Assembly (NCBI RefSeq): GCF_001457595.1
Contig: NZ_LN831039.1
Coordinates: forward strand, 5,070,001 to 5,102,000
Length of the DNA: 32,000 bases
Direction: 5' to 3'
From: Mycolicibacterium smegmatis
GTDB lineage: Bacteria > Actinomycetota > Actinomycetes > Mycobacteriales > Mycobacteriaceae
The position numbers and the translations under genes are program-made. The notes beneath the pieces were generated by a model that ran no database searches, was not told where the DNA came from, and saw only the letters and a list, made by a program, of their open reading frames with translations. The stretch's first letter is position 1, and each line of letters starts with the position of its first letter. This document shows, piece by piece, positions 1 to 21,264 of this stretch.

Positions 1-11
1 ACTGTTTTCGG

Positions 12-989
12 TCATGGACCGTCTCTGCGCGGCTGCACCCCAAAGAACGCGCCCCCACCCGAACCCGGTTGATTGTCAAAGCCGGTGTAGTCAAAAGTGA
101 TTCCGTTTGTGTCCCACCCGCCAGGGTTGCCGATGGACGGACCCCAAATCCCGCCAGGCATCATGACGTAAGGTGTTGAAACCGTGAGCCTTTCGGCGAA
201 CTGATCGAGCATGTCGGGTTCCTGTTGCCGCGCTTTCTCGAATAGCTCCGCTTGGCGTTGGCGGTCACTGATGTAAAGCCCGGTTCGGATCGCTTGGCCG
301 GGCTTGTCGAGCACGACAGTCATCACGTTGTCGCCCACCTTGTCTGTGAGCGCGCTCGTTTCCAGTACGGCGTCCCTGAGAATGTCCCTCACTTGGTCGG
401 GGACTTCATCGGCGGGGCAACTGAGCGCAGTCAATCGTGCCTTCGCACGGTCGATGATCGGGTTATTCACCATACCAACAGCATCGATGTAGAACGCTTT
501 GAATTGCTGTGTATCAGGCCGCATTTCGATGCTTGTGACCGAATCACCTTGGGCCTTAGTGCGAAACATTACCTTGGTTACCATGCCGTCTTTGCGTTGC
601 ACACCTGACGCGAGAACGATTGTCGCACGCTTCTTTTCACTGGCTAGCAGATGTGAGTAAGCGTCTCGCAGCGCGTTCTCCACGCGGTTGCGAATCTCTC
701 GGTAATGCAAGTCCGGTGGCGGCTGCCAGAACGTCATCATGGCGGGCGCAAGCTCGTCGTATCCGCTGATCGCTTCTGCGATGAGTCGATCAGTCGGCTT
801 GCCGTCGAGAAACGCCAGCCCGGTATAGCCCAGCACGACCCAACAGTCGATGCCCAGAACTACAACGGTCTTGTTGCTGTGCGGATCGTATTCGCCGGTT
901 GGATTATCTGGCGTCGGCTCGACGCTAACGAATCGGTCGCTCGCATGGAACGCCCAATTTCCCACGACTGCGGCGACGATCAGCGTCAT
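12..989 (-). CDS. Orphan protein, 325 aa; possible N-terminal-nucleophile (HslV/proteasome-beta-like) hydrolase; function unknown
   Basis: Complete ORF. Its ATG (989-987) overlaps the integrase stop (988-986) as ATGA, which implies co-transcription and translational coupling. The N-terminus MTLIVAAVVGNWAFHASD...NKTVVV...LGYTG parallels HslV TTIVSV...AGD...KKVRRL...AGFAG: Thr follows Met directly and Asp sits at mature position 17. No other family recognised. GC is lower than the core. Confidence 0.65.
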   Translation of the reverse strand: MTLIVAAVVGNWAFHASDRFVSVEPTPDNPTGEYDPHSNKTVVVLGIDCWVVLGYTGLAFLDGKPTDRLIAEAISGYDELAPAMMTFWQPPPDLHYREIRNRVENALRDAYSHLLASEKKRATIVLASGVQRKDGMVTKVMFRTKAQGDSVTSIEMRPDTQQFKAFYIDAVGMVNNPIIDRAKARLTALSCPADEVPDQVRDILRDAVLETSALTDKVGDNVMTVVLDKPGQAIRTGLYISDRQRQAELFEKARQQEPDMLDQFAERLTVSTPYVMMPGGIWGPSIGNPGGWDTNGITFDYTGFDNQPGSGGGAFFGVQPRRDGP

Positions 990-2176
990 GCCGACACGCC
1001 CACGCTGGCTGCCAACGTATCGGCCCGCAACGCCGAGAGAGCGTCGGCAACGGCGATGTCACGGCCCGACACCTGTTGCTGATAGATCAGGCTGGCTTTG
1101 TGGGTGGAATGCCGCAGCCGCGCCATCGTCTCGACCAGGTTGCCGACCTGAGCCGTCATGGTGCCCGCGAAGTGACGCAGATCGTGCACCCGCATATCGT
1201 TGTGCCCAACTGCACTCAGCGCCGGTTTGAAAACGTCTTTGGCGAACACCCGATCATTGACGTGGCACCCGCCGCGCGCGGGCGTGAACAGAAGCGAATC
1301 ACCCGCTTTATCAACGTGATTGGCTAGGTGCGCTCTTATGTCATCCCGAATGTGTGGAGGGATCACCACCTTGGCGGGCTTGCCGTCTTTAGGCGTGTCG
1401 ATGATGCATTCGCCGCTTCGGTGGGTTACACCACGCGCCACCGTGACCACAGTGCAATCGGCATCGAAGTCTTTTCGGCGCAGCTCCGACACTTCCCCGT
1501 ACCGCAGGCCGCACCACGCAGAAATCAACACCAGGGCGCGGAAGCGGGCGTTTTTGGTGTCGCCACCCAACTTGTCGGCAATGGCCTCAAGCTCGGGAAT
1601 CGTTGGCACAACGGCCTGGCGCTTGGTCTTCGGGTTCATTGCCCGTTCGATCATGCAGGGGTTGCGCTCAATCAATCCGTCTCGTACGGCGGTATTGCAA
1701 ACCATGTTGAGCAAACCGTACGCGTGAGCGTTGCGCGTCGGGTGCGTCGAGCCGAGGCCGGAGAACCACGTCCGCACCAAAGCAGGACTCAGGTCACGAA
1801 CCGCGTACTTGCCGAGCTTGGGCGCGATGTAGTTCGTCAGCGACGCCTCATAACCGATTCGGGTTCGCGGTTTGAGGTTGCGTTCACTGATCACCGCTTT
1901 CGCGTATTCGGCGACGGTGACCGCCACGGCCTTATTTTCCTCGGTGATCACTTCGGGCGGTTTCCACGACGACAGTCCCTCATCGCTCGCCGCGCACCGG
2001 TCGATCCGTTCCTTTTCTTTGTTGAGCCATCGTTCGGCGATCATTTTCGAGTCGAAGGTGACTGGCGCGAAGTGCCGCCGCAGATCGGGACCGATGTAAG
2101 ACGCTTGGAAGCGCGCCGATTTGGTGGGTTGCTTGCGAATAGATCCCCACTCGCGAGGGTTCTTTTTACCGGCCAT
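986..2176 (-). CDS. int: Tyrosine recombinase / phage-type site-specific integrase
   Basis: 396-aa ORF. The catalytic pattern is visible: CGLRYGEV (Arg I), VHDLRHFAGT (His-x-x-Arg) and LRHSTHKASLIYQQ (His plus Tyr nucleophile). The basic N-terminal arm-type region (MAGKKNPREWGSIRKQPTKSARFQASYIG) is typical of actinobacterial phage/ICE integrases. Confidence 0.93.
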   Translation of the reverse strand: MAGKKNPREWGSIRKQPTKSARFQASYIGPDLRRHFAPVTFDSKMIAERWLNKEKERIDRCAASDEGLSSWKPPEVITEENKAVAVTVAEYAKAVISERNLKPRTRIGYEASLTNYIAPKLGKYAVRDLSPALVRTWFSGLGSTHPTRNAHAYGLLNMVCNTAVRDGLIERNPCMIERAMNPKTKRQAVVPTIPELEAIADKLGGDTKNARFRALVLISAWCGLRYGEVSELRRKDFDADCTVVTVARGVTHRSGECIIDTPKDGKPAKVVIPPHIRDDIRAHLANHVDKAGDSLLFTPARGGCHVNDRVFAKDVFKPALSAVGHNDMRVHDLRHFAGTMTAQVGNLVETMARLRHSTHKASLIYQQQVSGRDIAVADALSALRADTLAASVGVSA

Positions 2177-2395
2177 TTCGTATGCACCCCTTCGTGAAAT
2201 CCCACCGGGTTCCCGGTAGGAATCCTGCGGCCCTCGTCGTTAACCAGTGGGTTTGCTAGGTCCCAACTATGTTCCAACGATGTGAACCATTCTACCCTGT
2301 GCAGGGTGCGCGAAGTGAGCGAACTTTCTTGGACTCAAATCGGTTGTGTTGCAAAGTGATTGCAGGTCACCACTCATATCGGCGCTTCAACGGAC

Positions 2396-2425
2396 GGCAC
2401 TTTCGAATCCTGCCGGGGGCACCCA
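2396..2425 (+). other. tRNA 3'-end-like fragment (T-loop TTCGAAT plus acceptor-like CGGGGGCA CC(C)A); candidate att core, not an intact tRNA
   Basis: The sequence ggcac-tTTCGAAT-cctgc-cgggggc-a-ccca sits 220 nt from the integrase start. The T-stem has mismatches (gcact versus cctgc). No complementary 5' acceptor strand (tgccccc/gcccccg) occurs within 90 nt upstream, so it is only a 3' fragment. Confidence 0.35.
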
Positions 2426-2703
2426 GTCTCTTCCTGGCAAGGCACGCGGCATTGCAATTTTTCCCATGCGCCACCTGTTTTTTGACGGAGTCCACAGCTC
2501 CATGCGACTGCTGGCCGCAGGGCGTCGCTGTGCGACTCCTCAGCCGCAGTGATCGCCCAAAAGGCCGCCGCCGAGGTGCTGTACATCGCACGTTTTGCCG
2601 TCACCGTGGCCCGATAGCGTGGAATCACTGCAAGACTGGCGGGCTGATTCACATGAGGATGTTCAAGTGCCGAACTTGCTGAACCGACCGACTGCGCGGC
2701 TCC

Positions 2704-4068
2704 TTAATCGGGTTGGAATCCGTCGGCGAAAGCCAGGACGTGGGGAGAGAGCAGGCTGAAGGGCGGCACTTTCACACGATGGGTAAAACCAGGCCCCGTC
2801 TGAAGTGCGTACATCCCGCGCCTGCCCCCGAAGCGACCGATGAGTTCCCGCACCACCTCGGCGTTGTATGCCACGTCGGGGTACAGAACGGCCTCAATTT
2901 GGGGATGCAGGTCGCGGATGAGCGGTTGAATGTTTTGGATCATCGCCAACACGCTCGGGTCGGAGTCCATCGCTTGCAGTTCGCTACGTTTCAGCCATCG
3001 CTTATTCCAAGACCACTTGGTGTAGTCGAGCAGCGCGCTGCGGTCGACATCGACAACAACTGCAGGCTCACCGTGCAAACTTGCGGCGAAGTTGTACTTG
3101 AAAGCGTCGATACTTACGTGTCGCAACACGTCTCCCTGCACCATCAGCCAACGGTAGTCGAATGACTTCTTCTTCAAGTTTTTGAACAACTTTCGGGCGG
3201 ACCGCGTTTCATGCGCGAACCGCCCGAACTTCTCCCGAGCTCTCCTGATCGTCTGTTCTTCTAGAATTTGAAGGGCACCAGTGAACGAAACCAGCGCAGA
3301 CCGCAACTTGCGCTTGCGCTCCTCTATCGCCTCGGTATCGGTGAACGATATACCGCCAGCTTGAAGGTGGGTGATGATGTCGATCACCACATCACAAAGC
3401 CGGTCGCTTTCATCGGAAAGATGCTGAAACAAGTCAGCCTCTAACATCTTCTCCAGCGCTCTGTATGCGTGGAGATAACGGGTGTGATCAGCCGGGGTGA
3501 AAGAGGCCACCTTTTCGAAGATCGGTGCGTCAGACCGGTTTGGGTCCCGATGAAACAAGATCGCCCCGTAAGGGTCCGCCCCGGCTTCAGCGTCATCCGC
3601 ATCCAACTTAGCTTCGATGTGTGCGCCAACATCCAGCGCCGCTGTAAAAGTTGCCCCAGTGAGAGGCATTCGCTGTCTGATCTGTTCAGCGGTGGGCATT
3701 ACATCGGTGAGCCACGTTTCGCCTTCCTGCAGCAGGCGCTCTAGCGCTTCACGCAGCGATTGCTCGGCTTCAGCACGAGTGGCCCGGTCCCTAGCATCGG
3801 GCGTCTCGTAGTGGTCTCTTGTTGCGGAGTTCATCGCCTGTACCAACGCGCGCGACGTCTCGGCAATGATCACCATCGCTGGAGTGCCCGGCGGTGGCGC
3901 AGTATCCGGCGAAAGACCACTGTGCCACGCATCGGAGGCGCTCTCGCAAAAGTCCAGCGGAGTGTCACCGTCTAGCCGCGGTAATGATGCGATGAATCTG
4001 CTGAGCCAATCCAACCAGCACCGAAGCAGCACAGGATCGTTGTCATCGGTATTGCCTTCGCCAGCCAC
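2704..4068 (-). CDS. Orphan protein, 454 aa, apparently soluble and helix-rich; function unknown
   Basis: Long ORF with a GTG start at 4068, preceded by AAGGGG 9 nt upstream. No TM segment, no Walker A and no recognisable catalytic motif. Spot GC of 48-60% is well below the core. Divergent from the 4239 gene. Confidence 0.75.
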   Translation of the reverse strand: MAGEGNTDDNDPVLLRCWLDWLSRFIASLPRLDGDTPLDFCESASDAWHSGLSPDTAPPPGTPAMVIIAETSRALVQAMNSATRDHYETPDARDRATRAEAEQSLREALERLLQEGETWLTDVMPTAEQIRQRMPLTGATFTAALDVGAHIEAKLDADDAEAGADPYGAILFHRDPNRSDAPIFEKVASFTPADHTRYLHAYRALEKMLEADLFQHLSDESDRLCDVVIDIITHLQAGGISFTDTEAIEERKRKLRSALVSFTGALQILEEQTIRRAREKFGRFAHETRSARKLFKNLKKKSFDYRWLMVQGDVLRHVSIDAFKYNFAASLHGEPAVVVDVDRSALLDYTKWSWNKRWLKRSELQAMDSDPSVLAMIQNIQPLIRDLHPQIEAVLYPDVAYNAEVVRELIGRFGGRRGMYALQTGPGFTHRVKVPPFSLLSPHVLAFADGFQPD

Positions 4069-4214
4069 TGGATCCTGCCCCTTTCTAACTTAGCGTCCGA
4101 TCCTATGCCTCGGTACCGACAAGCAGGCGAACCGCCAAAGCGCGTTCGAGCGCTTTTACGACACAGGTCGGAACAGTTCCCACTGGTCGGCGAGCCACCT
4201 GCACACGAGCCAGA

Positions 4215-4233
4215 GATGCTATTCGATAGCATC
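4215..4233. promoter_or_regulatory. Perfect 8-bp inverted repeat GATGCTAT-tcg-ATAGCATC immediately upstream of the 4239 start codon
   Basis: Read directly from the sequence. It ends 5 nt before the GTG at 4239, occupying the position where a Shine-Dalgarno would be expected. Candidate operator or translational hairpin. Confidence 0.3.
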
Positions 4234-4238
4234 CGCTC

Positions 4239-5243
4239 GTGAGCAGTTTCAAACACCGCAGGCAACGCATAGAGGAAGCTCTTGGCTTCAGCGCCACAAC
4301 TTTGACCTTCCTTGGCCTGATGTTCGTCGCGGGAATTATTCTCTGCATTTCGCTCTCACTCACCGATCTCGGGATTGGTTTTACTGAACCTGCATTGCTC
4401 ACGCGATTCAACGGAGAGTGGCTGCGAAGCCACTCCTACATACCCAACATTCTCGCCGGCTTGACGGGATTTTTAGTGGGGGTGCCGGTTGCGCTAGTGG
4501 TTCTCCAAACTGTAATTGGAAAGCGCGAGGATAACGTCGAGTTAGCCAAAGCCAAGCGTGTGACCGCCGCAGCATGGCGCGACTTCCGCAGTGCGGCATT
4601 TGAATTTGGCTCTCCTACTCGACGCAATGCGTTGCTCAGCATCGCACTCCACGAGGTCTATCCGCTGTACGAAGAGATCTTTAAGCGTCTCCAGGATTAC
4701 CGAGGCCAGAAACCCTTCGTTTCTCCGACCCAGGACCAGCACGACGAACTCATCGCGTACCTGAAATCCAAAGAAGCCGAGTTCAAGCGGAAGATTGATT
4801 CGGTGACAGCGAAAGTCGGCAATATAGATGAGTTGCTGAAATTATGGTCACGCGTGCTTTCAACTTGGTCTGTGGTAAATGTATACGTGCGCTCGCGCAG
4901 AATCGAGTTGGGTCTTTCTTGGTTTAATGACGACTCGAACTCGATTTTAGTTTCCGCACTAGCCACTACAGCAAGCCCCCTTGCCGATTTCACACACGTC
5001 CATAACGGCTTCGGCGCAAGGCCACCGGCCAGTATGGACATGGCGCATCAATGGATTTTGAGCTATATACGCTGGGAGAAAGACAAGCTTGACCGAACGC
5101 TGCAGTCTGACGACAAAGTGTTCGGCGTCGAGGGTGTCGAGGACTATCGGAAACACACCCAGCAGGCCGCGCTTTTTCTGAATGGCCTTCACCACGCGAT
5201 TAAGCAGATCGATGAAGAAGGCTGGCCGGATCAGTCGGCCTGA
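4239..5243 (+). CDS. Orphan membrane protein, 334 aa: two N-terminal TM helices plus a roughly 240-aa soluble helical domain; function unknown
   Basis: ORF with a GTG start. Hydrophobic segments are TLTFLGLMFVAGIILCISLSL and ILAGLTGFLVGVPVALVVLQTVIG. This is the lowest-GC part of the window (47-48% in lines 4801-4920). No known family recognised. The start codon is uncertain because no SD is present. Confidence 0.75.
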   Translation: MSSFKHRRQRIEEALGFSATTLTFLGLMFVAGIILCISLSLTDLGIGFTEPALLTRFNGEWLRSHSYIPNILAGLTGFLVGVPVALVVLQTVIGKREDNVELAKAKRVTAAAWRDFRSAAFEFGSPTRRNALLSIALHEVYPLYEEIFKRLQDYRGQKPFVSPTQDQHDELIAYLKSKEAEFKRKIDSVTAKVGNIDELLKLWSRVLSTWSVVNVYVRSRRIELGLSWFNDDSNSILVSALATTASPLADFTHVHNGFGARPPASMDMAHQWILSYIRWEKDKLDRTLQSDDKVFGVEGVEDYRKHTQQAALFLNGLHHAIKQIDEEGWPDQSA

Positions 5244-5714
5244 ACATCAAGACCGGAAAAACACATTCCCAAGAGCCTTGGGGCGGAGTCCGACCGCAGC
5301 GGCTTCGCGGGTAAGCCGTCAGTTCCCAAGGCCCGCACGCTGCACGACGCCGATACAGCACGAACAGTCGGCCCGCGGCGGCCGCTGCCGACTACCCCAG
5401 CGGCCCGCGTGAACACGTCGAAGAAGTCTTCTGAGCGCATTGAGGGCAGATTCAGACGCGCGCTAAAAGCGGCAAATCGGCCTCGCCTCAGCGTGCGATC
5501 AAGCTCCATCCTCCGTTAATGGCACCTACTGAGGTACCCACCCTGCGGGGACACTCAGATCAGACACTCTCCACGCGGACCGTGGCACCTCTCACACAGC
5601 TTATCGGGAATTTTTTCAAATCCCCGCAGAAACTTGCTGGCCGCAACCGCCTCCGACCGATTACGCTGGCGCTACGAGTTGTGCGCATCACTCCAGGACA
5701 CAGGGGACACAGAC

Positions 5715-6143
5715 ATGAACAAGTTCATCGCAGCGGCGGTGGCCGCCGGAGCACTCGGTGCGGGGCTTGCCTTCGCCGCGCCTGCCTCGGCAGCACCCAA
5801 CTGCTCCGACGTCGTCGACAAGATCAACAACGGCGTTGAGGTCGACGGGGAGACGCAGGACTACACGCCGAGCTACACCGAGAGGTGGACCTGCGCGGTC
5901 GACATCCAGGCCAACAAGTGGGCTACGTTCCCCGGTGACCTCGCCGGCAAGTGGGCCGGTTTCCCCGCTGACACCGCCAACAAGTGGGCCGAATTCCCCG
6001 GCAAGACCGCCAAGAAGTGGACCGATTTCCCCGGCGACCTCGCTGAAAAGTGGGGCGTCGGAGGAGGGGGCGGCGGCGGTAACGGCGGCGGCAACGAGAA
6101 CGGCGGCGGCGGCGAGAACGGCGGCGGCGGCAACGAAGGCTGA
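5715..6143 (+). CDS. Secreted repeat protein, 142 aa: signal peptide, 4.5 copies of an 11-aa A-x-K-W-x-x-F-P-G-D-x repeat and a Gly/Asn/Glu-rich tail
   Basis: ATG at 5715 is preceded by AGGGGA. The signal peptide MNKFIAAAVAAGALGAGLAFAAPASA has an AxA site. Repeats read ANKWATFPGDL AGKWAGFPADT ANKWAEFPGKT AKKWTDFPGDL AEKW. The tail is GGGGGGGNGGGNENGGGGENGGGGNEG. A paralogue lies at 13130-13531. Confidence 0.8.
   Translation: MNKFIAAAVAAGALGAGLAFAAPASAAPNCSDVVDKINNGVEVDGETQDYTPSYTERWTCAVDIQANKWATFPGDLAGKWAGFPADTANKWAEFPGKTAKKWTDFPGDLAEKWGVGGGGGGGNGGGNENGGGGENGGGGNEG
5910..6056 (+). repeat. In-frame 33-bp tandem repeat (4 full units plus a partial one) encoding the KW..FPGD 11-mers
   Basis: Units start at 5910, 5943, 5976, 6009 and 6042, each beginning gcc/gct-(a/g)a(c/g/a)-aag-tgg. 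Confidence 0.9.
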
Positions 6144-6165
6144 CGCCCCACTCACGATCCACTCA

Positions 6166-6200
6166 ATCAGTGGCGATCCGCTCAGCGGGTCGCCACTGAT
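6166..6200 (+). terminator. Intrinsic-terminator-like hairpin after the repeat-protein gene
   Basis: ATCAGTGGCGA-t-CCGC-tca-GCGG-g-TCGCCACTGAT: an 11-bp plus 4-bp stem joined by a U-G pair, with a 3-nt loop, followed by cgTTTat. It lies 23 nt after the stop codon. Confidence 0.55.
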
Positions 6201-6379
6201 CGTTTATCCGGGACTTTCTCACCGCATTCACTTTTTGCGGATTCAATTGACTACCAAAACAGTCGGCAAAGAGAAATTCTCGACCGCCGGAATCGAAACC
6301 TCTCGCCGCGATACAGTCACGTTGATCGGCATCCGAGTCAGTTGGCACCTGACAGTGACACGCCGAAAGAGGGTCTCGT

Positions 6380-7720
6380 ATGCCCACGACTGCCGGCGAG
6401 TGGTTCGTCCAGATCCTGATCTTCGTGCTGGTCGCCTACCCGATCGTGGGCGGCCTGGCGTTCATCGTGTCGAGCTTCTACTACCACGTGTTCATGGAGA
6501 AGCGCGAACTGCCGCGTCATCTCGAATACGGAACGCCGTTCGTCTCGATCTTCATTCCTGCGCACAACGAAGAAGCCTCGATCGCCGGCACGATCCACTA
6601 TCTGCAGAACCAGATCAACTATCCGCCCGATAAATTCGAGATTCTCGTCATCGACGATGCGTCGACCGACAAGACGCCGCAGATCCTGGCCGATCTGCAG
6701 GACCAATATCCGGACCTTCGTGTCGTCACGATCGTCAAGAACCGAGGCAAGGCGCACGGCCTGAACGTCGCCCTCGCGTTCGCCAAAGGCGACTTCATCC
6801 TGTCGAACGATGCCGACACCAAGCCGAACCCCGACGCGCTGTGGCAGTACATGAGCTACTTCGAACGCGCGGGCGGCCACAACGTCGGGGGTGTCACGGG
6901 AAACATGCTGGCCGCCAACCGCACCACCATCACCGCGCTGGCACAGGAGAACGAGTTGAACTCGATCATCGGCCTCATCAAGCGGTCGCAGATGTCCTAC
7001 GGGGCGCTGTTCGCGTTCTCCGGCGCCAACACGATGTACCGCAAGCAGGCCGTGCTCGACGTCGGCGGCTGGCACGCCGAACAACCGACCGAGGACATCG
7101 CCATCGCATGGGACATGCAGACCGCGGGCTGGCGCGCCCTCTTCGCACCCCATATCCGGTTTTTCCTGGACGTTCCGGAGCACCTCAGGTCACTGGTCAA
7201 GCAACGGCGTCGCTGGTCATCGGGCGGCATCTACGTGCTGCTGACCAAAGGCTGGCCGTTGATGAGGCACCCGCTGCGCAACTACCGGATGATGCCGGTG
7301 ATTCTCGATTACGGGTTCAGCATCGCCTGGAGCTTCCTGTACTGGGTCGCCATGGCGCTTTTCATCCTGAGCCAGGTTTACTTCGCCGGCACCCAGAACT
7401 GGGAACGCTTCGTCCACAACTGGTACATGGTCGGCATTTTCGTGGCGATGCAGATGGTCGTCGGTGTCGTCCAACTCACCGCGGCCTCGTACTACAACGA
7501 CGGCGGCAAGACCCTCAAGTACATCCTCTTCGCGCCCTTCTACATGCTCATCTATTGGATGGTGAACACCGGGACCGTCGTCTATGAGTTCATCCCGACC
7601 GTCCGCAAGATATGGGCACAGAAAGAGGGTGGTGTCTGGAAGTCACCCGACCGGTCGGCCAGCCTGCAGGAGATCGAGCAGGCGACCACAGATCACGGCA
7701 CGGAGACGGGGCGCCCGTGA
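6380..7720 (+). CDS. Processive family-2 glycosyltransferase, PgaC/IcaA-like (poly-beta-1,6-GlcNAc synthase-like)
   Basis: 446 aa with AGAGGG upstream of the ATG. GT2 synthase motifs occur in order: IPAHNEE, VIDDAS, SNDADT, TED and the QRRRW signature of the cellulose/chitin/PNAG synthase class. There is an N-terminal TM segment plus several C-terminal TM helices. Confidence 0.9.
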   Translation: MPTTAGEWFVQILIFVLVAYPIVGGLAFIVSSFYYHVFMEKRELPRHLEYGTPFVSIFIPAHNEEASIAGTIHYLQNQINYPPDKFEILVIDDASTDKTPQILADLQDQYPDLRVVTIVKNRGKAHGLNVALAFAKGDFILSNDADTKPNPDALWQYMSYFERAGGHNVGGVTGNMLAANRTTITALAQENELNSIIGLIKRSQMSYGALFAFSGANTMYRKQAVLDVGGWHAEQPTEDIAIAWDMQTAGWRALFAPHIRFFLDVPEHLRSLVKQRRRWSSGGIYVLLTKGWPLMRHPLRNYRMMPVILDYGFSIAWSFLYWVAMALFILSQVYFAGTQNWERFVHNWYMVGIFVAMQMVVGVVQLTAASYYNDGGKTLKYILFAPFYMLIYWMVNTGTVVYEFIPTVRKIWAQKEGGVWKSPDRSASLQEIEQATTDHGTETGRP

Positions 7721-8223
7721 CGGAGAAGCCGGCCTACGTCGTGCACGAGGTGCACGAGAAAGACGTCACCGTGGACTGGTTCTTCGGTGCTGCGCCGCTG
7801 TCCAGGAAAGTCGCGCAACTGATCTGCGTCGCGATCGGATGGTTCTTCGTCGTGCTTCCGGTGGTCATTCTGATTTCCGCTGTCACGCACCGGAACACCG
7901 AGGGCGGGTGGTGGAGCTATCACGAGGGTTTCGTGATGTTCGACCTGACGATCCGCTACCTGGGTTTTCTGTTCGTGGTTTTCGTGATCGGGTTCCTGGC
8001 ATTGCATCTGGTCAACCGATGGCAGAGTAGAGACCGCGATCGACGGATGACGTACGACCAGAAGCGTCTGGCTCAGCGCTTGGAGCTCTCCGACGACCTG
8101 TACACGAGCAAGTACGGCGCTGAACATCTTCGCCTGCAGCAGAAGACCATCCGGATCGAGCCGTACGGCGACTTCGAGACATACGAACTGCGTGATCGTT
8201 ACCGCACGTATGGAGTGGGCTGA
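7717..8223 (+). CDS. PgaD-like small two-TM membrane protein (putative synthase accessory subunit)
   Basis: The GTG start overlaps the synthase stop (GTGA at 7717-7720). Two TM helices (ICVAIGWFFVVLPVVILISAV and YLGFLFVVFVIGFLALHLV) are followed by a basic stretch and LAQRLELSDDLYTSK, which resembles E. coli PgaD LAIPDELYQQL. The start is chosen by coupling; the track ORF begins at 7612. Confidence 0.6.
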   Translation: MTEKPAYVVHEVHEKDVTVDWFFGAAPLSRKVAQLICVAIGWFFVVLPVVILISAVTHRNTEGGWWSYHEGFVMFDLTIRYLGFLFVVFVIGFLALHLVNRWQSRDRDRRMTYDQKRLAQRLELSDDLYTSKYGAEHLRLQQKTIRIEPYGDFETYELRDRYRTYGVG

Positions 8224-9176
8224 TGTCGTTGTCGACCGCAGACCGGCTGCTGATCGAGAGCATGAAGCAGCGGGAGTTCAACCTCAAGAAGAGGCAGCGC
8301 GCAGCCAACGCGATCTTCCACGAAACCCGGCGCTACCGCGTGCTTCTGGTGGCCACGTGGGCCGTGGTCGTGGCGGGCGTGATGACAGGCGTCTGCGTCG
8401 GTCTGGGAAACACTTTGCGGTACGTGTCCGACCCGTGGCGCATGTCACTTGTGGTTTTCGCCGTCGGTTCGGTGTTCGGCGCGCTGTCCGGGGCCGGCTG
8501 GGTGCGCACTCCGGCCGGGGAGAAGTTGCTCGCCAACAAGGAGCGCCGACTGCACCACAAGTACGGCGGCGATCTGCACGCCGGACGACGCTGGCAGCAG
8601 TTCTACCACCGCGGCGAGGACATCTCGGTCTACATCGGGCAGATCCTGTACGTCGTCGACAGCGAGCAGCGCTTCGAGTGCGTGGACGATGCGCTTGCGT
8701 TCGTCAAGGCGCACAGCGGCGAAATCGCCAGGTTCAGGCAGCGCGGACTCGAGATGTTCAACGCAGTCGTCACCGGGACCACCTTGCTCGTGGTGTCGAG
8801 CGTGAACGAAAGAGGCGAAGTATCAAGCCGTTTCATGCGCTTCGTCAAGACAGACCGGCCCGGTGTGTGGTTCGTCACCACATCGCCGGATTCACCGAAG
8901 GTGCGTGAATTCGACAGCGGCGCTGTCGCATTGATCACCGTGCCGAATGCCGACGGTGCGACGATCAGCAGCAATCGTGTCCGAATTGCACGGTCCGGTC
9001 TGCCCTTTGGCGCAATCGCCGGGCTGTACCGAGATCAGGTGCCCGAATACCTCGACGGCATGACCGAACAGGACCAGCGTCGCGAACTGGTCTACGAATT
9101 GACACTCGAATCGGCGAAGATCGACACCTGGGTCGATCACGAACTGGTCGTATTCAACGGATCAGACAGCGTCTGA
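8223..9176 (+). CDS. Orphan two-TM membrane protein, 317 aa; third gene of the synthase operon
   Basis: The ATG overlaps the upstream stop (TGATG at 8221-8225). TM helices are VLLVATWAVVVAGVMTGVCVGLG and SLVVFAVGSVFGALSGAGWV, followed by a roughly 220-aa soluble C-terminal domain. No deacetylase (NodB-type) or other motif recognised. Confidence 0.7.
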   Translation: MSLSTADRLLIESMKQREFNLKKRQRAANAIFHETRRYRVLLVATWAVVVAGVMTGVCVGLGNTLRYVSDPWRMSLVVFAVGSVFGALSGAGWVRTPAGEKLLANKERRLHHKYGGDLHAGRRWQQFYHRGEDISVYIGQILYVVDSEQRFECVDDALAFVKAHSGEIARFRQRGLEMFNAVVTGTTLLVVSSVNERGEVSSRFMRFVKTDRPGVWFVTTSPDSPKVREFDSGAVALITVPNADGATISSNRVRIARSGLPFGAIAGLYRDQVPEYLDGMTEQDQRRELVYELTLESAKIDTWVDHELVVFNGSDSV

Positions 9177-9191
9177 CCTGCACGCAACAGA

Positions 9192-9437
9192 TCAGTGCGG
9201 TACCGCGAAACCCTCAGGCGTGGTCCACGTGAACGGCGGCTTGGCTACCGACGTTTCCGGCGCTGTAGGCGCAGTCGACTGCGTGACGGTGGCGCCCGTC
9301 TGCATGGGCCCCATCGCGTAATCCGGCCCGCTGACGGGCGAATAGCTTGACATCAAACTCAACGCGGCCATCGCGACGACTGCTGCCAGGCCGACAATGC
9401 CTGACACGATCTTGAAGCGCGCCTTGGGAATTCGCAC
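9192..9437 (-). CDS. Small membrane-anchored Pro/Thr-rich protein (about 81 aa); start uncertain
   Basis: The C-terminal part of track ORF 9192-9746 looks coding: a basic N-terminus (VRIPKARFK) and the TM segment IVSGIVGLAAVVAMAALSLM. The upstream 100 codons look non-coding. A GTG at 9437 is taken as the start. Confidence 0.4.
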   Translation of the reverse strand: MRIPKARFKIVSGIVGLAAVVAMAALSLMSSYSPVSGPDYAMGPMQTGATVTQSTAPTAPETSVAKPPFTWTTPEGFAVPH

Positions 9438-9736
9438 CTTCCGGGCTATATGAGAAATTCGCGTCTGTGAGTACACCTCTGACCACTCCACTCGGTCTCG
9501 GGTCGACCGCCCCCTGTGAGCGACGCCGCTTTGTGTAAGGCATCCGGTGCCGGTTTTATTCCGCGTGCAACGAGACGAAGACCACAGTCGGCAAACACCT
9601 GGCGCAAACGGTCCCACGTGCGGCATATCAGCGAACTCACGAATCATGATCAGGTAGTTCACAACTGGGGAGGTAAGACGAGCCACCCAAGGCGTCGCGA
9701 AGAACAGACACCCCGAAAGAAAATGGAGCTTCGCGT

Positions 9737-10996
9737 ATGACCTCAAGCCGGCAGGACCACACCGCCACCGAAACTGCCACGCTCGTACGCCCCGTCGATG
9801 CGCTCGAGCGCCTGTTCTACCGCTACAGCGACCGAAACCCGGTGCATTTCATGCTGGTTGCCGAGTTCGACGACGTCCTCGACGAAGATGCGGTGCGATC
9901 GGCACTGGAACTCCTCAGCAGACGTCATCCGCTGCTGCAGGTGCACGTCGAGGACCGGCAAGGCGGCCGCCTCGGGTTTCATCGCATCGAGAATCCCGAA
10001 CCGGTACCGCTGCGCGTGGTCGAGACCACAAATTGGCAGGCGGTGGCCGCCGAGGAGTTCGTCGAACCCTTCGACCGGTCACGGGCACCGCTGATGCGCG
10101 CGGTTCTGCTCGTCGACGCCACGTCATCGGCACTACTGCTCACCATCGACCACACCATCGGCGACGGTATCTCGACAATCCAGGCCCTTCGTGACGTCCT
10201 TGCTGTACTCAACGGCGAGACGCTGCCGGTTCTTCCCGTGCCGCCCTCGCAAGAAGTGATGCTGGAGAACGTGTTCGGCCCGAGGCAGCAGTGGACGCTC
10301 GTCACGCCGCCGGATCCGGACCCGCGCATGCTCAGGCCCACGTCGGTGCGCGAGTTCGACAGAACCCCGACCACCATCCACAGCTTGGCGATACCGGCCC
10401 ACGACACGGCGGCCCTACTGCGCCGGTGCCGCGCCGAGCGCACCACGGTGCACGCGGCGATCGTCACCGCGGCCTCGCGCGTACGCAACCGGTGGGGTGG
10501 CGAAGACTTCGTACGCGTGCTGAGCCCCATCAACTTCAGGTCACTGATCCGGGCCGACGACGAGGTCGCGCCGTACTTCAGCTGCGTCATCACCGGTATG
10601 GCGCCACAAGACGGCGCGTCGTTCTGGGATCAGGCGCGCAACGTGACCGCGGATCTGGCCGCGGCCCGCTCGGCGCCCAGAACCCTGGCTGCCTCGGCAG
10701 GGGTTCAACAGCTCATCGGCGTCGATGCCGACACCGCAACCGCCGAGGAGGTGTTCACCAGGGCCATACCGTTCGACCTGTTGATCACGAACCTGGGCAT
10801 CCAGGACCTCGAGGGGACGGGTCCGCTGCGGCCGACGGCGGTGTGGGCCCCGGTGCTCGAAAGCCAGATCGCCGGCAACGTCGTCATCGGGATCACCACC
10901 TACGCGGGAGTCCTGCGCATGGTGGCGTGTGGGTACGCACCCGTGCAGGAGTTCCTCGAACCCGTCGCGCAAACCCTGGTCGACGAATCAGCGTGA
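9737..10996 (+). CDS. Condensation-domain acyltransferase, PapA5-like (HHxxxDG superfamily)
   Basis: 419 aa with GGAG upstream of the ATG. The active-site-like motif is LLLTIDHTIGDGIS, a variant of HHxxxDG. The N-terminal LERLFYRY...VLDEDAVRSALELLSRRHPLLQVHVE parallels PapA5 SEEVFAQY...DALSDAFDALLETHPVLASHLE, and the length is similar to PapA5. Confidence 0.75.
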   Translation: MTSSRQDHTATETATLVRPVDALERLFYRYSDRNPVHFMLVAEFDDVLDEDAVRSALELLSRRHPLLQVHVEDRQGGRLGFHRIENPEPVPLRVVETTNWQAVAAEEFVEPFDRSRAPLMRAVLLVDATSSALLLTIDHTIGDGISTIQALRDVLAVLNGETLPVLPVPPSQEVMLENVFGPRQQWTLVTPPDPDPRMLRPTSVREFDRTPTTIHSLAIPAHDTAALLRRCRAERTTVHAAIVTAASRVRNRWGGEDFVRVLSPINFRSLIRADDEVAPYFSCVITGMAPQDGASFWDQARNVTADLAAARSAPRTLAASAGVQQLIGVDADTATAEEVFTRAIPFDLLITNLGIQDLEGTGPLRPTAVWAPVLESQIAGNVVIGITTYAGVLRMVACGYAPVQEFLEPVAQTLVDESA

Positions 10997-12214
10997 GCGC
11001 CGCGCGAAATCAGGTGCATGTTCGGGCAGCGGTCCCACCCCCACCAGATAGGCCGGGACCTTCGCCAGGCCCGGGAACCGGCTGAGCACCGCGCCCACGG
11101 CCTTCAGCACGCGCTCGGGCGGCTGTCTGATCTCGCCGCCGAGCAGCGCCCGCCGCAGACCGATGTGCAGCACCCGCTGGACCGCCTGGATAACCGCGGC
11201 AGGCACGTACCGGCGCTTCTCGACAGCGGCCAGGTCGCGCCGGGTGACCCGGCCGGTGCGCAGCGGTTCGGCGAGGATGCGCGCAGCGGCGACCGCGTCG
11301 GCGATCGCGAGGTTGATGCCGACGCCGCCGACCGGGGACATCGCGTGTGCGGCGTCGCCGATGCACAGCAACCCGTCGCGGTACCAGCGGCGCAACCGGT
11401 TGAGCTTGACGTCCAGCACCTTGACGTCGGCCCACGACGTCAGCCGGTCGACCGAGGCCTCGGGCACCGCTTCGGCGACCTGCGCACGGAACACCTCGAG
11501 CCCGCGTGCGTGCAACTGCTTCTCGCCGCCCTTGGGCAGGAAGCAGCCGGCCTGGAAGTAGCCCTCACGCGGAATGAGGATGAGCGCCTGCCCGGACGAG
11601 ATCCGCGGTGTCAGTTGGTAGGCGGTCTCCTTGATGCGGTCGATGCGGAACCAGCCCACGTCGAAGGGGACGGGGTACTCCCGCGGCGCCAGCCCGGCCT
11701 CTTTGCGCACGCGTGACGTGCGTCCGTCGCACGCGACGGTGAGATCGGCGCGCAACTCCCCCGGCCCGTCGGGGGCGTGGTAGCGGACGCCGGTGACGGT
11801 GTCGCCGTCTTTGAGCAGCCCCGTGACCTCGGTCTGCATGCGCAGGGTGAACGTGGGTTCCTCCTTGGCCGCATCGGCGAGCAGATCGAGGAAATCCCAT
11901 TGCGGCACAAGGGCGATGTAGCGGTGCGGCAGGTTCAGCCTGCCGAAGTCGACGACCGTGACCTCGCGGCCACCGAGGTCGAACCGCGCCCGTTCGACGC
12001 GGCTGTGCTGCAGCGCGTCGAACTTCTCGAACAGGCCCAGTTCGTCGAGCAGGCGCAGGGTCGCCGGATGCACGGTGTCCCCGCGGAAGTCGCGCAGGAA
12101 GTCGGCGTGCTTCTCGAACACCGTGACCTCGATCCCCGCGCGGGCCAGCAGCAGGCCCAGCACCATGCCTGCGGGACCGCCTCCGACGACGGCGCATGTG
12201 GTCTTCTCGGTCAT
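10988..12214 (-). CDS. FAD-dependent monooxygenase (UbiH/aromatic-ring hydroxylase class)
   Basis: The real start is MTEKTTCAVVGGGPAGMVLG (GxGxxG dinucleotide fold). The motif GDAAHAMSPVGGVGINLAIADAV is present. The 71-codon N-terminal extension in the track is Arg-rich and rejected. A GTG at 12220 is an alternative start. Confidence 0.9.
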   Translation of the reverse strand: MTEKTTCAVVGGGPAGMVLGLLLARAGIEVTVFEKHADFLRDFRGDTVHPATLRLLDELGLFEKFDALQHSRVERARFDLGGREVTVVDFGRLNLPHRYIALVPQWDFLDLLADAAKEEPTFTLRMQTEVTGLLKDGDTVTGVRYHAPDGPGELRADLTVACDGRTSRVRKEAGLAPREYPVPFDVGWFRIDRIKETAYQLTPRISSGQALILIPREGYFQAGCFLPKGGEKQLHARGLEVFRAQVAEAVPEASVDRLTSWADVKVLDVKLNRLRRWYRDGLLCIGDAAHAMSPVGGVGINLAIADAVAAARILAEPLRTGRVTRRDLAAVEKRRYVPAAVIQAVQRVLHIGLRRALLGGEIRQPPERVLKAVGAVLSRFPGLAKVPAYLVGVGPLPEHAPDFARRSR

Positions 12215-15281: not shown

Positions 15282-16556
15282 ATGGCTGCAATCAGCGCAA
15301 CCGTGACAAGACCACGCAACATCGGTGTGGTGCCGGCCGCCTCCATGGTCACCGGCGCCGCGATAGCGACGGTGTGGTTCTGGATACCGTTGGCAATAAT
15401 GATCATTGGCGTTTCATCGATACCTTCGGTGATCGGCTTCCTGCTCGCGGGCGTGGTGTTCATCTACCTCATGCGCGGCGTCGAGTGGGTGGAACGCGCC
15501 CGCAGCGAGGCGGTTTTCGCCCTCAACATCAGCATTCCGCCGCGTCCGCGCACGCACCACAGCGGTTTCCAGGGCTGGGCGCACCAGCTGTGGCTCGACG
15601 TCAGCTGCACCCGGTTCTGGAAGGGCGTGGCGCACCACTACCTGCGGATGATCTACGACCTGCTGGCGGCCGGAATCGCGTTCGCGTTGCTCGCGTTCGC
15701 GTTCATCGGCCCGGCCGCGTCCATGGCCATCCGCGACAGCGACGACGACGCGGGACTGGTGTTCCTCTCACCGCCGATCGCGTGGCTCCTGGCGGTCATC
15801 GCGGTCGCCGCGGCCGCGGCCATCCTGGTGTTCGCGCCCGCGCTCGACGCGGCGATCGACCGGTGGCTGCTCTCACCGTCGCCCACGGCGGCCCTTCAGC
15901 ACCGGGTCAACGCGCTCGCCGACGCGCGGGAGGGCGCGGTCTCGTCGGCGCAGACCGAGCGCCACCGCATCGAGCGCGACCTCCACGACAGCGTGCAACC
16001 ACGCCTGGTGTCGCTGGCCATGACCATCGGCCTGGCGCAGACCAAGCTGGATTCGGACCTGCCCGCGGCCAAGGAGCTGATCGCCGAGGCACACGACGAG
16101 GCCAAGAACGCGCTGGTGGAGTTGCGCAACGTCGTGCGCGGCATCGCCCCGACGATCCTGGCCGACCGCGGCCTGGACGCAGCCTTGTCGTCGGTGGCGC
16201 AGCGCGCGCAGAACTCCGGTGTGCCAACCACATTGGACGTGCATCTACCGCACCGGCTGCCCGACGAGGTGGAGTCCGTCGCGTACTTCGTGGCGGCCGA
16301 GGCGCTCACCAACGTGATCAGGCACGCCCAGGCCAACCAGGCCGTGGTGACCGTGCGTCTCGACGAACCGAGCGCGACGCTGCACGTCTCGGTGTTCGAC
16401 GACGGCAAGGGCGGCGCGCGCATCGAATCGGACGCCAACGCGACCGGCCTGCGCGGGCTCGCCGAACGTGTGCGTGCGGCAGGCGGAACCTTCGACGTGT
16501 CCAGCCCGGCGACCGGGCCGACGATCGTGACGGCGGTGCTGCCATGCGGATCGTGA
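15282..16556 (+). CDS. Sensor histidine kinase (HisKA_3/NarL-partner class) with an N-terminal multi-TM sensor region
   Basis: H-box ERHRIERDLHDSVQPRLVSL. HATPase motifs EALTNVIRHA (N box), DDGKGG (G1) and GLRGLAERV (G2). Several N-terminal TM helices. Confidence 0.92.
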   Translation: MAAISATVTRPRNIGVVPAASMVTGAAIATVWFWIPLAIMIIGVSSIPSVIGFLLAGVVFIYLMRGVEWVERARSEAVFALNISIPPRPRTHHSGFQGWAHQLWLDVSCTRFWKGVAHHYLRMIYDLLAAGIAFALLAFAFIGPAASMAIRDSDDDAGLVFLSPPIAWLLAVIAVAAAAAILVFAPALDAAIDRWLLSPSPTAALQHRVNALADAREGAVSSAQTERHRIERDLHDSVQPRLVSLAMTIGLAQTKLDSDLPAAKELIAEAHDEAKNALVELRNVVRGIAPTILADRGLDAALSSVAQRAQNSGVPTTLDVHLPHRLPDEVESVAYFVAAEALTNVIRHAQANQAVVTVRLDEPSATLHVSVFDDGKGGARIESDANATGLRGLAERVRAAGGTFDVSSPATGPTIVTAVLPCGS

Positions 16557-17188
16557 TCGCAGAGGATTCGGCGCTGCTGCGCGCCGGTATCGAACGGATA
16601 CTCGCCGACGCCGGTCACGACGTGATCGCGGGGGTGCCCGACGCGACGAACCTGCTGAACCTGGTCAACGAGCATCGGCCCGACCTGGCGATCCTCGACG
16701 TGCGCATGCCGCCGACGTTCACCGACGAGGGCATCCGGGCCGCCGCACTGTTGCGCAAACAGAATCCTGAATCCCCCGTGCTGGTGCTGTCGCATTACGT
16801 CGAAGAGCGTTATGCCTCCGACCTGATCGCCTCGGACACAAAGGGTTTCGGTTATCTGCTCAAAGACCGGGTGGCCGACGTGCCAGCGTTCCTCGACGCC
16901 GTCGAGGTGGTGGGGCGCGGCGGAACGGTGCTCGACCCAGAGGTGGTGAGTCAGATCTTGGTCCGTTCCCATCGACGTAGCGCGCTGGACCAACTGACCC
17001 CGCGCGAACACGACGTCCTGCAACTCATGGCCGAGGGCAAGACCAACTCGGCGATCGCCTCGGCCCTGCACATCTCGATCGGCTCCGCCGAGAAACACAT
17101 CGCATCGATCTTCACCAAGCTCGACCTGGCCCCCGACGAGAGCGAGAACCGCCGCGTGCTGGCGGTCCTGCGCTTCCTCGAGACCTAG
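16544..17188 (+). CDS. Response regulator, NarL/LuxR family
   Basis: Receiver domain MRIVIAEDSALLR...PDLAILDVRMP carries the phospho-acceptor Asp. The C-terminal LuxR HTH reads LTPREHDVLQLMAEGKTNSAIASALHISIGSAEKHIASIFTKL. The start overlaps the kinase stop by 13 nt. Upstream codons of track ORF 15374 are rejected. Confidence 0.93.
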   Translation: MRIVIAEDSALLRAGIERILADAGHDVIAGVPDATNLLNLVNEHRPDLAILDVRMPPTFTDEGIRAAALLRKQNPESPVLVLSHYVEERYASDLIASDTKGFGYLLKDRVADVPAFLDAVEVVGRGGTVLDPEVVSQILVRSHRRSALDQLTPREHDVLQLMAEGKTNSAIASALHISIGSAEKHIASIFTKLDLAPDESENRRVLAVLRFLET

Positions 17189-20589: not shown

Positions 20590-21264
20590 CTACCGTGCGC
20601 GCGTGTTGCGCAGATCGCCGGTCATGCCGCGCACCGACGGCGGCAGCGGGGTTCCGGCAGGGACGTCCGGGGCGGTGAGCGGCGCACCGTACCGCGTCGT
20701 CAGCGGGACGACGCCGGCCCACCCGCCGGCCGCGATGTCGTCGTCGGCGTCGTCGGGCCACCCCTCGCTGAGCTTGAGCGACCAGTTGTCGTCGCCGATC
20801 GGGAGTGCCAACGCGAGCGTCGCCGCGAGTTCCTTGCGCGTGCTCGCGCGCAGTTCGGCGGTGCGGCCCGGGATGAAGCGGTCGGTCAGCGCGTCCAGAT
20901 ACCCGGGTTTGGCGTCCTCGGCGATCACCGCGAACGTGCCGAACAGCGTCGCGCTGCGGTAGCGGAACGACGATTCGAAACTGCTGCGCGCCACCACCAC
21001 ACCGTCGAGCGCGGTCACCGACACCGCGGCGGGCGCACCCTCGGCGAGTGCGCGCAGCCACGGTGATCCGGTGGAGCCGTGGATCACCAATTCGTCGCCG
21101 ACCCTGCCGAATCCGATCGGGAACGCGACGGGATGACCGTCGCGCACCAGTGCGACGGTGGCCAGCGGGATGGTGTCGAGCAGATCGTCCAGCCGTTCGC
21201 GCGACGTGCTCTGCTTCTCATCGAGACGCGTGACGCGAGTGGATGGTTTCGAGACGTCGGTCAA
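20590..21264 (-). CDS. Pyridoxamine 5'-phosphate oxidase-like (FMN-binding split-barrel) family protein
   Basis: TRLDEKQSTSRERLDDLLDTIPLATVALVRDGHPVAFPIGFGRVGDELVIHGSTGS is typical of this family. The only in-frame start near the conserved region is a TTG at 21264, overlapping the upstream stop (TTGA). The upstream 65 track codons are rejected. Confidence 0.7.
   Translation of the reverse strand: MTDVSKPSTRVTRLDEKQSTSRERLDDLLDTIPLATVALVRDGHPVAFPIGFGRVGDELVIHGSTGSPWLRALAEGAPAAVSVTALDGVVVARSSFESSFRYRSATLFGTFAVIAEDAKPGYLDALTDRFIPGRTAELRASTRKELAATLALALPIGDDNWSLKLSEGWPDDADDDIAAGGWAGVVPLTTRYGAPLTAPDVPAGTPLPPSVRGMTGDLRNTRAR

Follow-up and report, generated by a model that had tools for sequence, protein, structure and literature searches.

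A composite island at a tRNA-Arg(CCG) hotspot of Mycolicibacterium smegmatis with a predicted proteasome-fold protein and candidate conflict genes

tRNA islands and defence islands that carry a tyrosine integrase are bounded by an intact tRNA gene on one side and by a direct repeat of its 3′ end on the opposite side, and have the integrase gene next to that repeat. They are low in GC and in GC at third codon positions (GC3), have an empty counterpart site within the species, use integration hotspots in tandem or as composites, are invaded by insertion sequences (IS), and carry cargo such as SIR2- and GmrSD-like genes. We found the same features at the left end of a 32,000-nt stretch of Mycolicibacterium smegmatis DNA (contig NZ_LN831039.1, positions 5,070,001–5,102,000 of the forward strand; the whole stretch is called the window and is numbered from its first letter), where a tyrosine integrase gene is accompanied by genes for three uncharacterised proteins of 325, 454 and 334 amino acids (aa). 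The locus differs from the described islands in that its integrase is tRNA-distal, in that no excisionase was recognised, and in that one of its parts, segment B1, has neither an integrase of its own nor a second repeat.

The proteins encoded here can also be set beside described systems. Fuchs et al. (2021; PMC8665760) define the proteasome-like family by its fold together with Thr1/Asp17/Lys33 and Gly47. They also describe the “Distant Actinobacterial proteasome Homolog” (DAH; representative WP_085249540.1), which occurs in phages as well and carries an additional domain at its C-terminus. The 325-aa protein shares with 20S beta subunits, HslV, Anbu, BPH and DAH the predicted fold (that of beta subunits and HslV) and a Thr after Met1; its Asp at mature position 17 and its conserved Lys and Gly may correspond to the other residues of the definition. 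To DAH it fits by description only, through a C-terminal extra domain of ~60 aa and an occurrence in Actinobacteria and phages. It differs from the proteasome-like hydrolases in having no sequence-profile match, in the place of its Lys (mature position 39, not 33), and in its length of 325 aa versus 175–230 aa. The passages of the article consulted make no mention of an association with integrases or prophage lysogeny modules. For the 454- and 334-aa proteins the nearest parallels are lambda RexA/RexB, CarolAnn gp44/gp43 and Sbash gp30/gp31 (PMC6426606), which likewise join a soluble protein of ~370–450 aa to a small protein with several transmembrane (TM) segments, on an integrated element and near att/int. 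The 454/334 pair has no sequence or fold similarity to these pairs and no DUF4747; its genes are divergent rather than co-directional, and the membrane partner is missing from most loci of the 454-aa family.

We are highly confident that a composite island occupies the tRNA-Arg(CCG)/argS hotspot of M. smegmatis, that it is strain-specific, and that positions 1–5602 of the window form its right-hand end. An origin from three or more insertions, among them an integrase element whose att repeat is clear, is well supported. The island is a standard composite at a tRNA hotspot, an object of a well-known kind; its 325-, 454- and 334-aa families are conserved, uncharacterised proteins that recur beside anti-phage genes in Mycobacteriales. 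To the complete reading, a composite island whose three genes are accessory conflict genes, we give a probability of about 0.6. The features that it concerns are as follows.

12–989, minus strand: 325-aa predicted homologue of proteasome-beta/HslV-like N-terminal-Thr hydrolases (AlphaFold2 [AF2] model, Foldseek and conserved residues)
986–2176, minus strand: tyrosine integrase, 396 aa (PF00589, E = 3e-7; PF14659; PHROG_1, E = 6e-47)
tRNA-Arg to 2401, ~10.9 kb: element A, bounded by the intact tRNA gene and, at the far end, by a 24-nt copy of its 3′ end
2402–2425, plus strand: att remnant, the displaced 3′ end of tRNA-Arg(CCG) and right end of element A
2426–5602, 3.2 kb: segment B1, without a counterpart in strain mc2-155, with the divergent 454-aa and 334-aa genes; GC 57.0%
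2704–4068, minus strand: 454-aa soluble, mostly helical protein (predicted), a conserved Mycobacteriales family without a fold match
4239–5243, plus strand: 334-aa membrane protein with two predicted TM segments (~14–49 and ~68–96) and a helical cytoplasmic domain

The ends of element A were located with the flank contig L001 (CP082846), for which the window coordinate is 12177 minus the L001 coordinate; the exact proteins of the window are present in several M. smegmatis genomes, including CP082846 and CP089215. ARAGORN detected no tRNA within the window. In L001, tRNA-Arg(ccg) lies at 20648–20723, ~8.5 kb left of the window, and its 3′ end faces the island. Window positions 2402–2424 matched the searched 23-nt tRNA 3′ pattern at 22 of 23 positions, with no match in 100 shuffles, and the remnant is a direct repeat of L001 20649–20675 at a spacing of 10,895 nt. 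Compared with the native tRNA end of mc2-155, positions 2402–2425 are identical at 24 of 24 nt, “CACCCA” tail included, unlike the intact tRNA-Arg of the island strain, which ends in “CACCACCTC”. These two ends fit an incoming element that brought its own version of the 3′ end and moved the previous one aside; the “CACCACCTC” end would then stem from the attP of element A. The integrase has the R…HxxR…Y motifs of its class (LRYGE at residue 224, HDLRH at 331 and LIYQ at 363). It is located at the tRNA-distal end of element A and is transcribed away from the att remnant; no Xis-like domain or excisionase was recognised among the genes examined. A preliminary description, made from the letters of the window, had named a tyrosine integrase and a tRNA-3′-like att remnant and suggested that the island continues to the left. 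All of this is borne out, the continuation being ~8.5 kb, up to tRNA-Arg(CCG).

The description had also treated 1–5250 as one island, and here the junctions tell otherwise. Since the att remnant sits between the integrase gene and the 454-aa gene, the two halves are separate insertions: the end of element A, and the two-gene segment B1. Locus variants were collected by exact look-up of the core response regulator (16544–17188); exact look-up of the FAD monooxygenase returned island-bearing strains only. Among 24 contigs, ~19 have an empty site, four have this island, and CP027541 has a different one. The empty site, found in mc2-155 (CP000480 and CP001663, which we take to be this strain) and in several other strains, has the order argS, tRNA-Arg, a small secreted-protein gene, a 91-aa open reading frame (ORF) and a condensation-domain gene, and the gap from argS to the condensation gene is 1.45 kb. 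Relative to mc2-155 the junctions fall at 2425/2426, ~5602/5603, 6205/6206 and 9190/9191. B1 begins just past the point where the native tRNA gene has its 3′ end, and similarity to mc2-155 resumes at 5603 (blastn and local alignment). Further right, segment B2 (6206–9190) is an independent insertion. We infer that B1 came first and that element A arrived later, between tRNA and B1: it would have entered the tRNA gene with B1 already present and pushed the old tRNA end and B1 away. The different island of CP027541.1 (L038, 1–2005; an HNH protein and others) occupies the same tRNA-Arg(CCG) and has a 48-nt att remnant; because of it, we regard this tRNA gene as a multi-allelic integration hotspot.

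The composition of the window agrees with these boundaries in part. Recounting the six 60-nt lines whose GC content had been counted by hand in the preliminary description gave 46.7, 48.3, 60.0, 48.3, 60.0 and 71.7%, exactly the values reported, and the discontinuity in GC and codon usage that it expected is there. In 500-nt windows, mean GC was 59.2% (sd 3.4, n = 35) in 1–9190 versus 68.6% (sd 2.7, n = 90) in 9191–32000 (Mann–Whitney p = 6e-17), and GC of the island is 57–59% versus 68.6% outside. GC3 separates foreign from core DNA better than GC does: it is 61–73% in the four genes of 1–5250 and 82–90% in core genes, placing the island 15–25 points under the core. As the genes at 5715–9176 have a near-native GC3 of 79–87%, the foreign composition is confined to ~1–5602. 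The right limit of 5250 that had been proposed therefore matches the compositionally foreign part, which ends at the ~5602 junction; the strain-specific tract itself extends to 9190. The view of the DNA as foreign, integrase-linked and accessory within the species holds, mc2-155 and most other strains being empty, and the proposed comparison with relatives yielded both the empty site and the junctions, with mc2-155 as the reference.

Outside the window, element A runs leftward toward the tRNA through a 150-aa ORF, an IS3 transposase, a SIR2_2 protein, a PRiA4_ORF3 protein with an ISL3 transposase, and a GmrSD_N protein, and is followed by tRNA-Arg(CCG), argS and lysA. The SIR2_2 protein matched PDC-S25/ThsA-like models of PADLOC (E = 6e-15), and the GmrSD_N protein matched PDC-M55C (E = 3e-60) and also HEC-05. 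Both IS elements of element A lie in this outer part. The unit made up of the ISL3 transposase and its PRiA4_ORF3 passenger is at L001 16394–18425 (CP082846), between the SIR2 and GmrSD genes, and at 3774–5805 of L002 (CP089215), between the GT2 and secreted-protein genes. Because its place differs between the two strains, we conclude that it has transposed recently within the island.

The opposite history, in which M. smegmatis had the region from the start and strains with the empty site, mc2-155 included, lost it by deletion, is very improbable. It would account for a metagenome contig of a related mycobacterium (L042) in which the 454/334 pair stands beside tRNA-Arg(CCG)/argS in the same relative orientation, at 68–71% nucleotide identity to the pair of the window and without element A. 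Deletion does not sit well with the tRNA 3′ end duplicated as a direct repeat alongside an intact integrase, with a GC3 so far below that of the core, or with ~19 of 24 contigs showing a clean empty site and an intact native tRNA end. The third strain with a different island at the same att site, and the mobile IS and passenger unit of the two island-bearing strains, argue against it as well.

All members of the 325-, 454- and 334-aa families are annotated as hypothetical, and the preliminary description had taken the three ORFs for orphans without a recognisable enzymatic signature. The ORFs exist as described and match no library family, but they are not orphans: the families comprise at least 59 homologue clusters at 90% identity (325 aa), at least 130 clusters (454 aa) and at least 36 clusters (334 aa). 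The 90%-identity clusters of the window's own three proteins are tiny and restricted to M. smegmatis. Sequence-profile searches of the PDB with all three families gave no significant hit, and a Pfam scan of every member of the three family alignments returned sub-threshold noise only; the distant members that were scanned likewise had no Pfam domain. Profile and structure searches of the kind recommended in the description added no profile family and no fold for the 454-aa protein; they did connect the 325-aa protein with 20S beta subunits and HslV.

The 325-aa protein itself matched nothing in Pfam, NCBIfam or PADLOC at E ≤ 0.1, and in PHROGs only phrog_26607, at an insignificant E = 0.062. 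Its AF2 model, built with the family alignment, has a pLDDT of 89 and a pTM of 0.90. Foldseek against the PDB returned 111 hits at E ≤ 1e-3, of which the top 50 were all 20S beta-type subunits or HslV; the best matches had E ~1e-6, probability 1.0 and target-normalised TM scores of 0.55–0.69. Among 39 homologues, T2, D18 and K40 are at least 90% conserved and G54 and G57 are invariant, and the alignment shows the motifs “HASDR” with Asp18, “NKT” with Lys40, G54-Y-T-G57 and a C-terminal “QPR.P.P”. Family members start with Met (or a GTG or TTG start) followed by “TL” or “TQ”; T2 was found in 15 of 15 distant homologues inspected, and the distant members keep the same residue pattern. In mature numbering, counted along the chain, D18 becomes position 17 and K40 position 39 (compared with Lys33), with G54 and G57 conserved. 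Removal of Met1 would expose the Thr. We are confident of the fold as modelled, which points to a proteasome-type protein with a Thr1/Asp17/Lys catalytic signature, and to that extent the claim that no enzymatic signature could be seen does not stand. Because no sequence link was found, this assignment is made from the fold and the motifs.

A profile of the family searched against 1.84 billion representatives gave 1085 matches at E ≤ 1e-3, of which 498 had E ≤ 1e-10; almost all of them are 305–340 aa long and align from residue 1. In the window, the ATG of the 325-aa gene overlaps the stop codon of the integrase gene (ATGA, 986–989), an arrangement of translational coupling that places it downstream of int in one transcription unit. 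In M. paragordonae a gene of the family follows an integrase fragment, in an att-bounded element of ~5 kb that also holds 454-family and DUF4145 genes. Homologues in Gordonia phages (CarolAnn gp36, Blino gp36 and Ruthy gp33; 33–34% identity, E = 1e-41) are part of the leftward lysogeny block, which separates the tail genes from int/repressor, and lysogens of CarolAnn show low-level transcription of genes 34–36 (PMC6426606).

These contexts also speak for the main alternative, which we consider unlikely, namely that the genes serve the mobile elements that carry them. By analogy with the ImmA protease of the immR-immA-int operon of ICEBs1, the 325-aa hydrolase would process or degrade an element protein such as the integrase, a directionality factor or a repressor and so control excision and maintenance, and the 454/334 pair would be a toxin–antitoxin-like addiction module that keeps the island stable. 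The coupling to int in the window and the order in M. paragordonae would be expected on this account, as would the place of the Ruthy homologue, whose leftward block also contains int and a RelE/RelB pair. The position of 454-family genes at the very edge of elements, by att or a tRNA, and, in one clade, directly downstream of complete AbiEi/AbiEii modules of the toxin–antitoxin type, speaks for the addiction part. The tie to a particular recombinase is nonetheless loose, because the CarolAnn homologue is beside a serine integrase, unrelated to the tyrosine integrase here, because the M. gilvum homologue, 1.2 kb from a phage capsid gene, has no integrase within 8 kb, and because on contig L017 an opposite-strand gene separates the 325-family gene from int. 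Two further points disfavour it: the ~1085 representative clusters exceed what would be expected of a regulator of one element family, and Ruthy already has an ImmA-like metalloprotease beside its repressor.

Contig L028, from Mycobacterium sp. SMC-8, encodes between its 454- and 334-family genes a 278-aa protein (8912–9748, minus strand) with the pattern “MTL…SDR…NK…GFSG”. It was not found by hmmsearch; hhalign against the 325-aa family gave a probability of 52% (E = 1.4e-4) over the first ~55 residues, and the protein may be a distant, weak relative of that family.

The 454-aa protein has homologues of ~450 aa, at 40–80% identity, in Mycobacterium (marinum, canettii, paragordonae), Mycobacteroides abscessus, Nocardia, Rhodococcus fascians and Tsukamurella. 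No TM segment was predicted in it. Searches of Pfam, NCBIfam and PADLOC at E ≤ 0.1, and of PHROGs, returned nothing. Its AF2 model (pLDDT 88.6, pTM 0.66) is mostly helical with three small beta hairpins, and Foldseek found no match to it in the PDB or BFVD. The most conserved stretch of the family reads YRWL..(L/M)[R/G](D/G)AL(Q/L)HGDINAF and contains an Rx4H motif (consensus LRDALQH) in which the Arg is present in 41 of 53 members and the His in all 53. We take the likeness to the HEPN motif as a lead only. In HEPN proteins the motif is at the start of the last HEPN helix; in the AF2 model of the 454-aa protein it is at the end of a helix. AbiE and HEPN modules resemble the family in the complete AbiEi–AbiEii pair upstream in one clade and in the Rx4H motif of those 41 members. 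They differ in that the window has no AbiE genes, that its own 454-aa protein carries Gly where the motif has Arg, and that no HEPN fold was matched.

Bacterial CARD-like domains occur in defence systems, and CARD_2 (PF16739) was considered for the 454-aa family. We rejected it: 14 of 53 members gave sub-threshold matches of ~55 residues, the best of 20.7 bits versus a gathering threshold of 28.2, and these are probably helical noise. They cover residues ~257–321 (window ~3106–3300, minus strand), over the Rx4H stretch.

The neighbours of 454-family genes are rich in anti-phage genes. They include Shedu SduA (E = 5e-131), an AAA and S8-peptidase pair and a HEPN_Swt1/DUF499 protein in M. canettii. 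In R. fascians, where the gene stands directly after tRNA-Leu, they are an NsnA/GmrSD-like protein (NsnA, E = 1e-57), HEPN_MAE and AAA_21, and in M. paragordonae, beside tRNA-Met, a DUF4145 (PD-T7-4-like) gene and AbiEi/AbiEii. The M. abscessus gene is likewise beside tRNA-Met, and in Mycobacterium sp. SMC-8 the neighbours are an integrase and HTH_17 genes. Among 79 loci, six metagenome contigs of one clade have an AbiEii nucleotidyltransferase gene (PF08843, E = 2e-19) ~50 nt upstream of, and co-directional with, the 454-family gene, preceded in two of the six by AbiEi, which completes the pair. Other metagenome neighbours matched models of type IIG restriction–modification, MADS, AriA (PARIS) and AbiL. 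Of 28 loci with a near-full-length 454 match, 10 have a tRNA no more than 3.3 kb away (8 of 26 without two near-duplicates); with these counts, the statement that 454-family genes always abut a tRNA proved too strong and was dropped.

On contigs L045 (2573–5438) and L050 (2853–5867) the AbiEi, AbiEii and 454-family genes are co-directional, with a 4-nt overlap of the first two and then a gap of ~50 nt. In that clade the arrangement looks like a three-gene array.

The 334-aa protein and its family had no match in Pfam, NCBIfam or PADLOC (E ≤ 0.1), PHROGs or the PDB; its TM segments were predicted from Kyte–Doolittle hydropathy. The 454 and 334 genes are divergent and adjacent in the window and on contigs L027 and L042. 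On L028 the 334 gene is split by an IS21 element, and in M. marinum adjacency was deduced from the locus tags NJB1507_08330 and NJB1507_08340. A 334-family gene accompanies the 454-family gene within a clade of at least 60% identity and not elsewhere, and this is exactly the clade (12 of 53 sequences) in which Arg312 of Rx4H has become Gly. Contig L017 combines distant relatives from each of the three families with genes for an integrase, a resolvase and a D5-type primase. Such co-occurrence is the exception, and because it is sporadic, the idea of a single three-gene system was rejected.

The three genes are most likely, as we infer, accessory conflict genes of mobile elements, and a defence role for them is plausible from the company that their families keep. 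They would act as phage-exclusion or abortive-infection genes. The odds that at least one of the 325-, 454- and 334-aa genes confers phage resistance are, in our estimate, somewhat below even. The 325-aa protein would be an N-terminal-Thr hydrolase of the proteasome superfamily, its exposed Thr acting with Asp17 and a Lys, and might cleave, or in the manner of a connectase ligate, a protein substrate. It would be expressed with the integrase, much as the Gordonia-phage homologue is from the prophage. For the other two, the soluble-sensor and membrane-effector pairs RexA/RexB and CarolAnn gp44/gp43 provide the model: the soluble, helical 454-aa protein would sense infection and its 334-aa partner with two TM segments would execute the response. 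In clades without the partner, the Rx4H motif of the 454-aa family may itself be catalytic.

A bolder form of this proposal, which we hold to be doubtful, makes the 325-aa family (~1085 clusters at 50% identity) an unrecognised class of mobile-element proteases or ligases engaged in exclusion or conflict, and the 454-aa family a single-gene abortive-infection protein of new fold whose effector role has, here, passed to a partner with two TM segments. Should such a role be proven, an integrase-coupled, prophage-expressed Thr hydrolase of proteasome fold would be a new enzymatic class in mobile-element biology. One of the “new proteasome homologs”, so far known from sequence only, would thereby be placed in a biological setting for the first time. 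As mc2-155 naturally lacks the whole island and has a clean empty site, the candidate genes can be tested directly with the mycobacteriophage collection.

Several results weigh against the composite-island and conflict-gene reading. On the structural side, a search for a second att remnant bounding B1 or B2 found none (scores of 12–13 versus a shuffle mean of 11.7 and maximum of 15), and because no second remnant delimits B1, its origin as an older element is deduced rather than seen. For the proteasome assignment, the Foldseek rmsd of the 325-aa model is 5–7 Å, the family profile detected neither Pfam PF00227 nor any proteasome or HslV chain in the PDB, and hhalign of the family against a manually entered E. 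coli HslV sequence returned a probability of 0.3%, that is, no relationship. For the HEPN lead, the best HEPN hit of the 454-aa model in Foldseek had E = 3.8, and the window's own protein reads QGDVLRH, with Gly for the motif Arg, and so is without Rx4H. The correlation between the 334-aa partner and Gly312, being limited to one clade, amounts to a single evolutionary event, and profile hidden Markov model searches found 325-like and 334-like genes at only few of the 454-family loci examined. The 454-aa family was absent from the sequenced-phage collection and from IMG/VR.

As for defence itself, PADLOC v2 (E ≤ 0.1) assigned none of its families to the three proteins, and searches of the literature turned up no proteasome or HslV homologue with a part in phage defence. 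The defence reading is drawn entirely from neighbourhood, by guilt through association, and cargo unrelated to defence is found in islands too, in this case the PgaCD-like genes and the gene for a secreted protein. The suggestion of a defence island in the preliminary description accordingly fares in two ways: the SIR2-like and GmrSD-like genes of element A and the defence neighbours of the 454 homologues bear it out, and the missing PADLOC matches for the three ORFs do not.

To the right of B1 the window contains a resident gene, the third strain-specific segment and the start of the shared core.

5715–6143, plus strand: 142-aa secreted Gly-rich repeat protein (PHROG_6023, E = 1.7e-15), with a signal-like segment at residues 3–24
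6206–9190, plus strand: segment B2, a strain-specific insertion without mc2-155 counterpart
6380–7720, plus strand: PgaC-like GT2 (TIGR03937, E = 1e-86, end to end; 291 bits versus a 422-bit cutoff)
7717–8223, plus strand: PgaD-like small protein with two TM segments (TIGR03940, 21.9 bits versus a cutoff of 31.45)
8223–9176, plus strand: 317-aa membrane protein with a PNPOx-like domain, the third B2 gene
9191–11143: start of the shared core, with a 91/94-aa ORF, the condensation-domain gene and the FAD monooxygenase gene

The 142-aa protein has four repeats of the “KWaxFPGdlA” type and a Gly-rich tail. Its segment (5603–6205) is 79% identical in nucleotide sequence to the mc2-155 gene beside tRNA-Arg, versus 96.7% in the flanking core; the gene is a resident of the locus, present here as a hyper-divergent allele beside the integration hotspot. 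B2 resembles PgaC/PgaD in that its GT2 protein aligns end to end with TIGR03937 and is followed by a protein with two TM segments and a weak PgaD match, with overlapping stop and start codons. It differs from that system in that both proteins score under the NCBIfam equivalog cutoffs, that neither PgaA nor PgaB is present, and that the 317-aa PNPOx-like membrane protein stands in their place. From these matches, B2 may be a surface-polysaccharide module.

Such cargo lends some colour to a further alternative, that the region is a decayed prophage or satellite remnant whose genes are lysogenic-conversion morons acting on the envelope or physiology. A strain-specific PgaC/PgaD-like pair next to a secreted Gly-rich protein with a PHROG match would suit it, and so would a 334-aa protein that is predicted to be membrane-bound, the capsid gene near the M. 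gilvum homologue, and the D5-type primase of L017, which is typical of satellites and integrative elements. We consider this improbable. The island has no phage structural, lysis or replication genes, the native-like GC3 and separate junctions of B2 mark it as an independent insertion, and the recognisable cargo of element A is of the defence type.

The core begins at 9191. Over 1955 nt, 9191–11143 is 96.7% identical to mc2-155, and the gene order is the same in all strains examined. Rfam identified no RNA family within the window, and promoter and terminator scans gave counts at or under shuffle expectation. Two strong AT-skew peaks of 0.3–0.4 lie over minus-strand membrane-protein genes, an MFS-type transporter (25524–26891) and a Gly-rich membrane protein (30783–31982), where such skew is ordinary.

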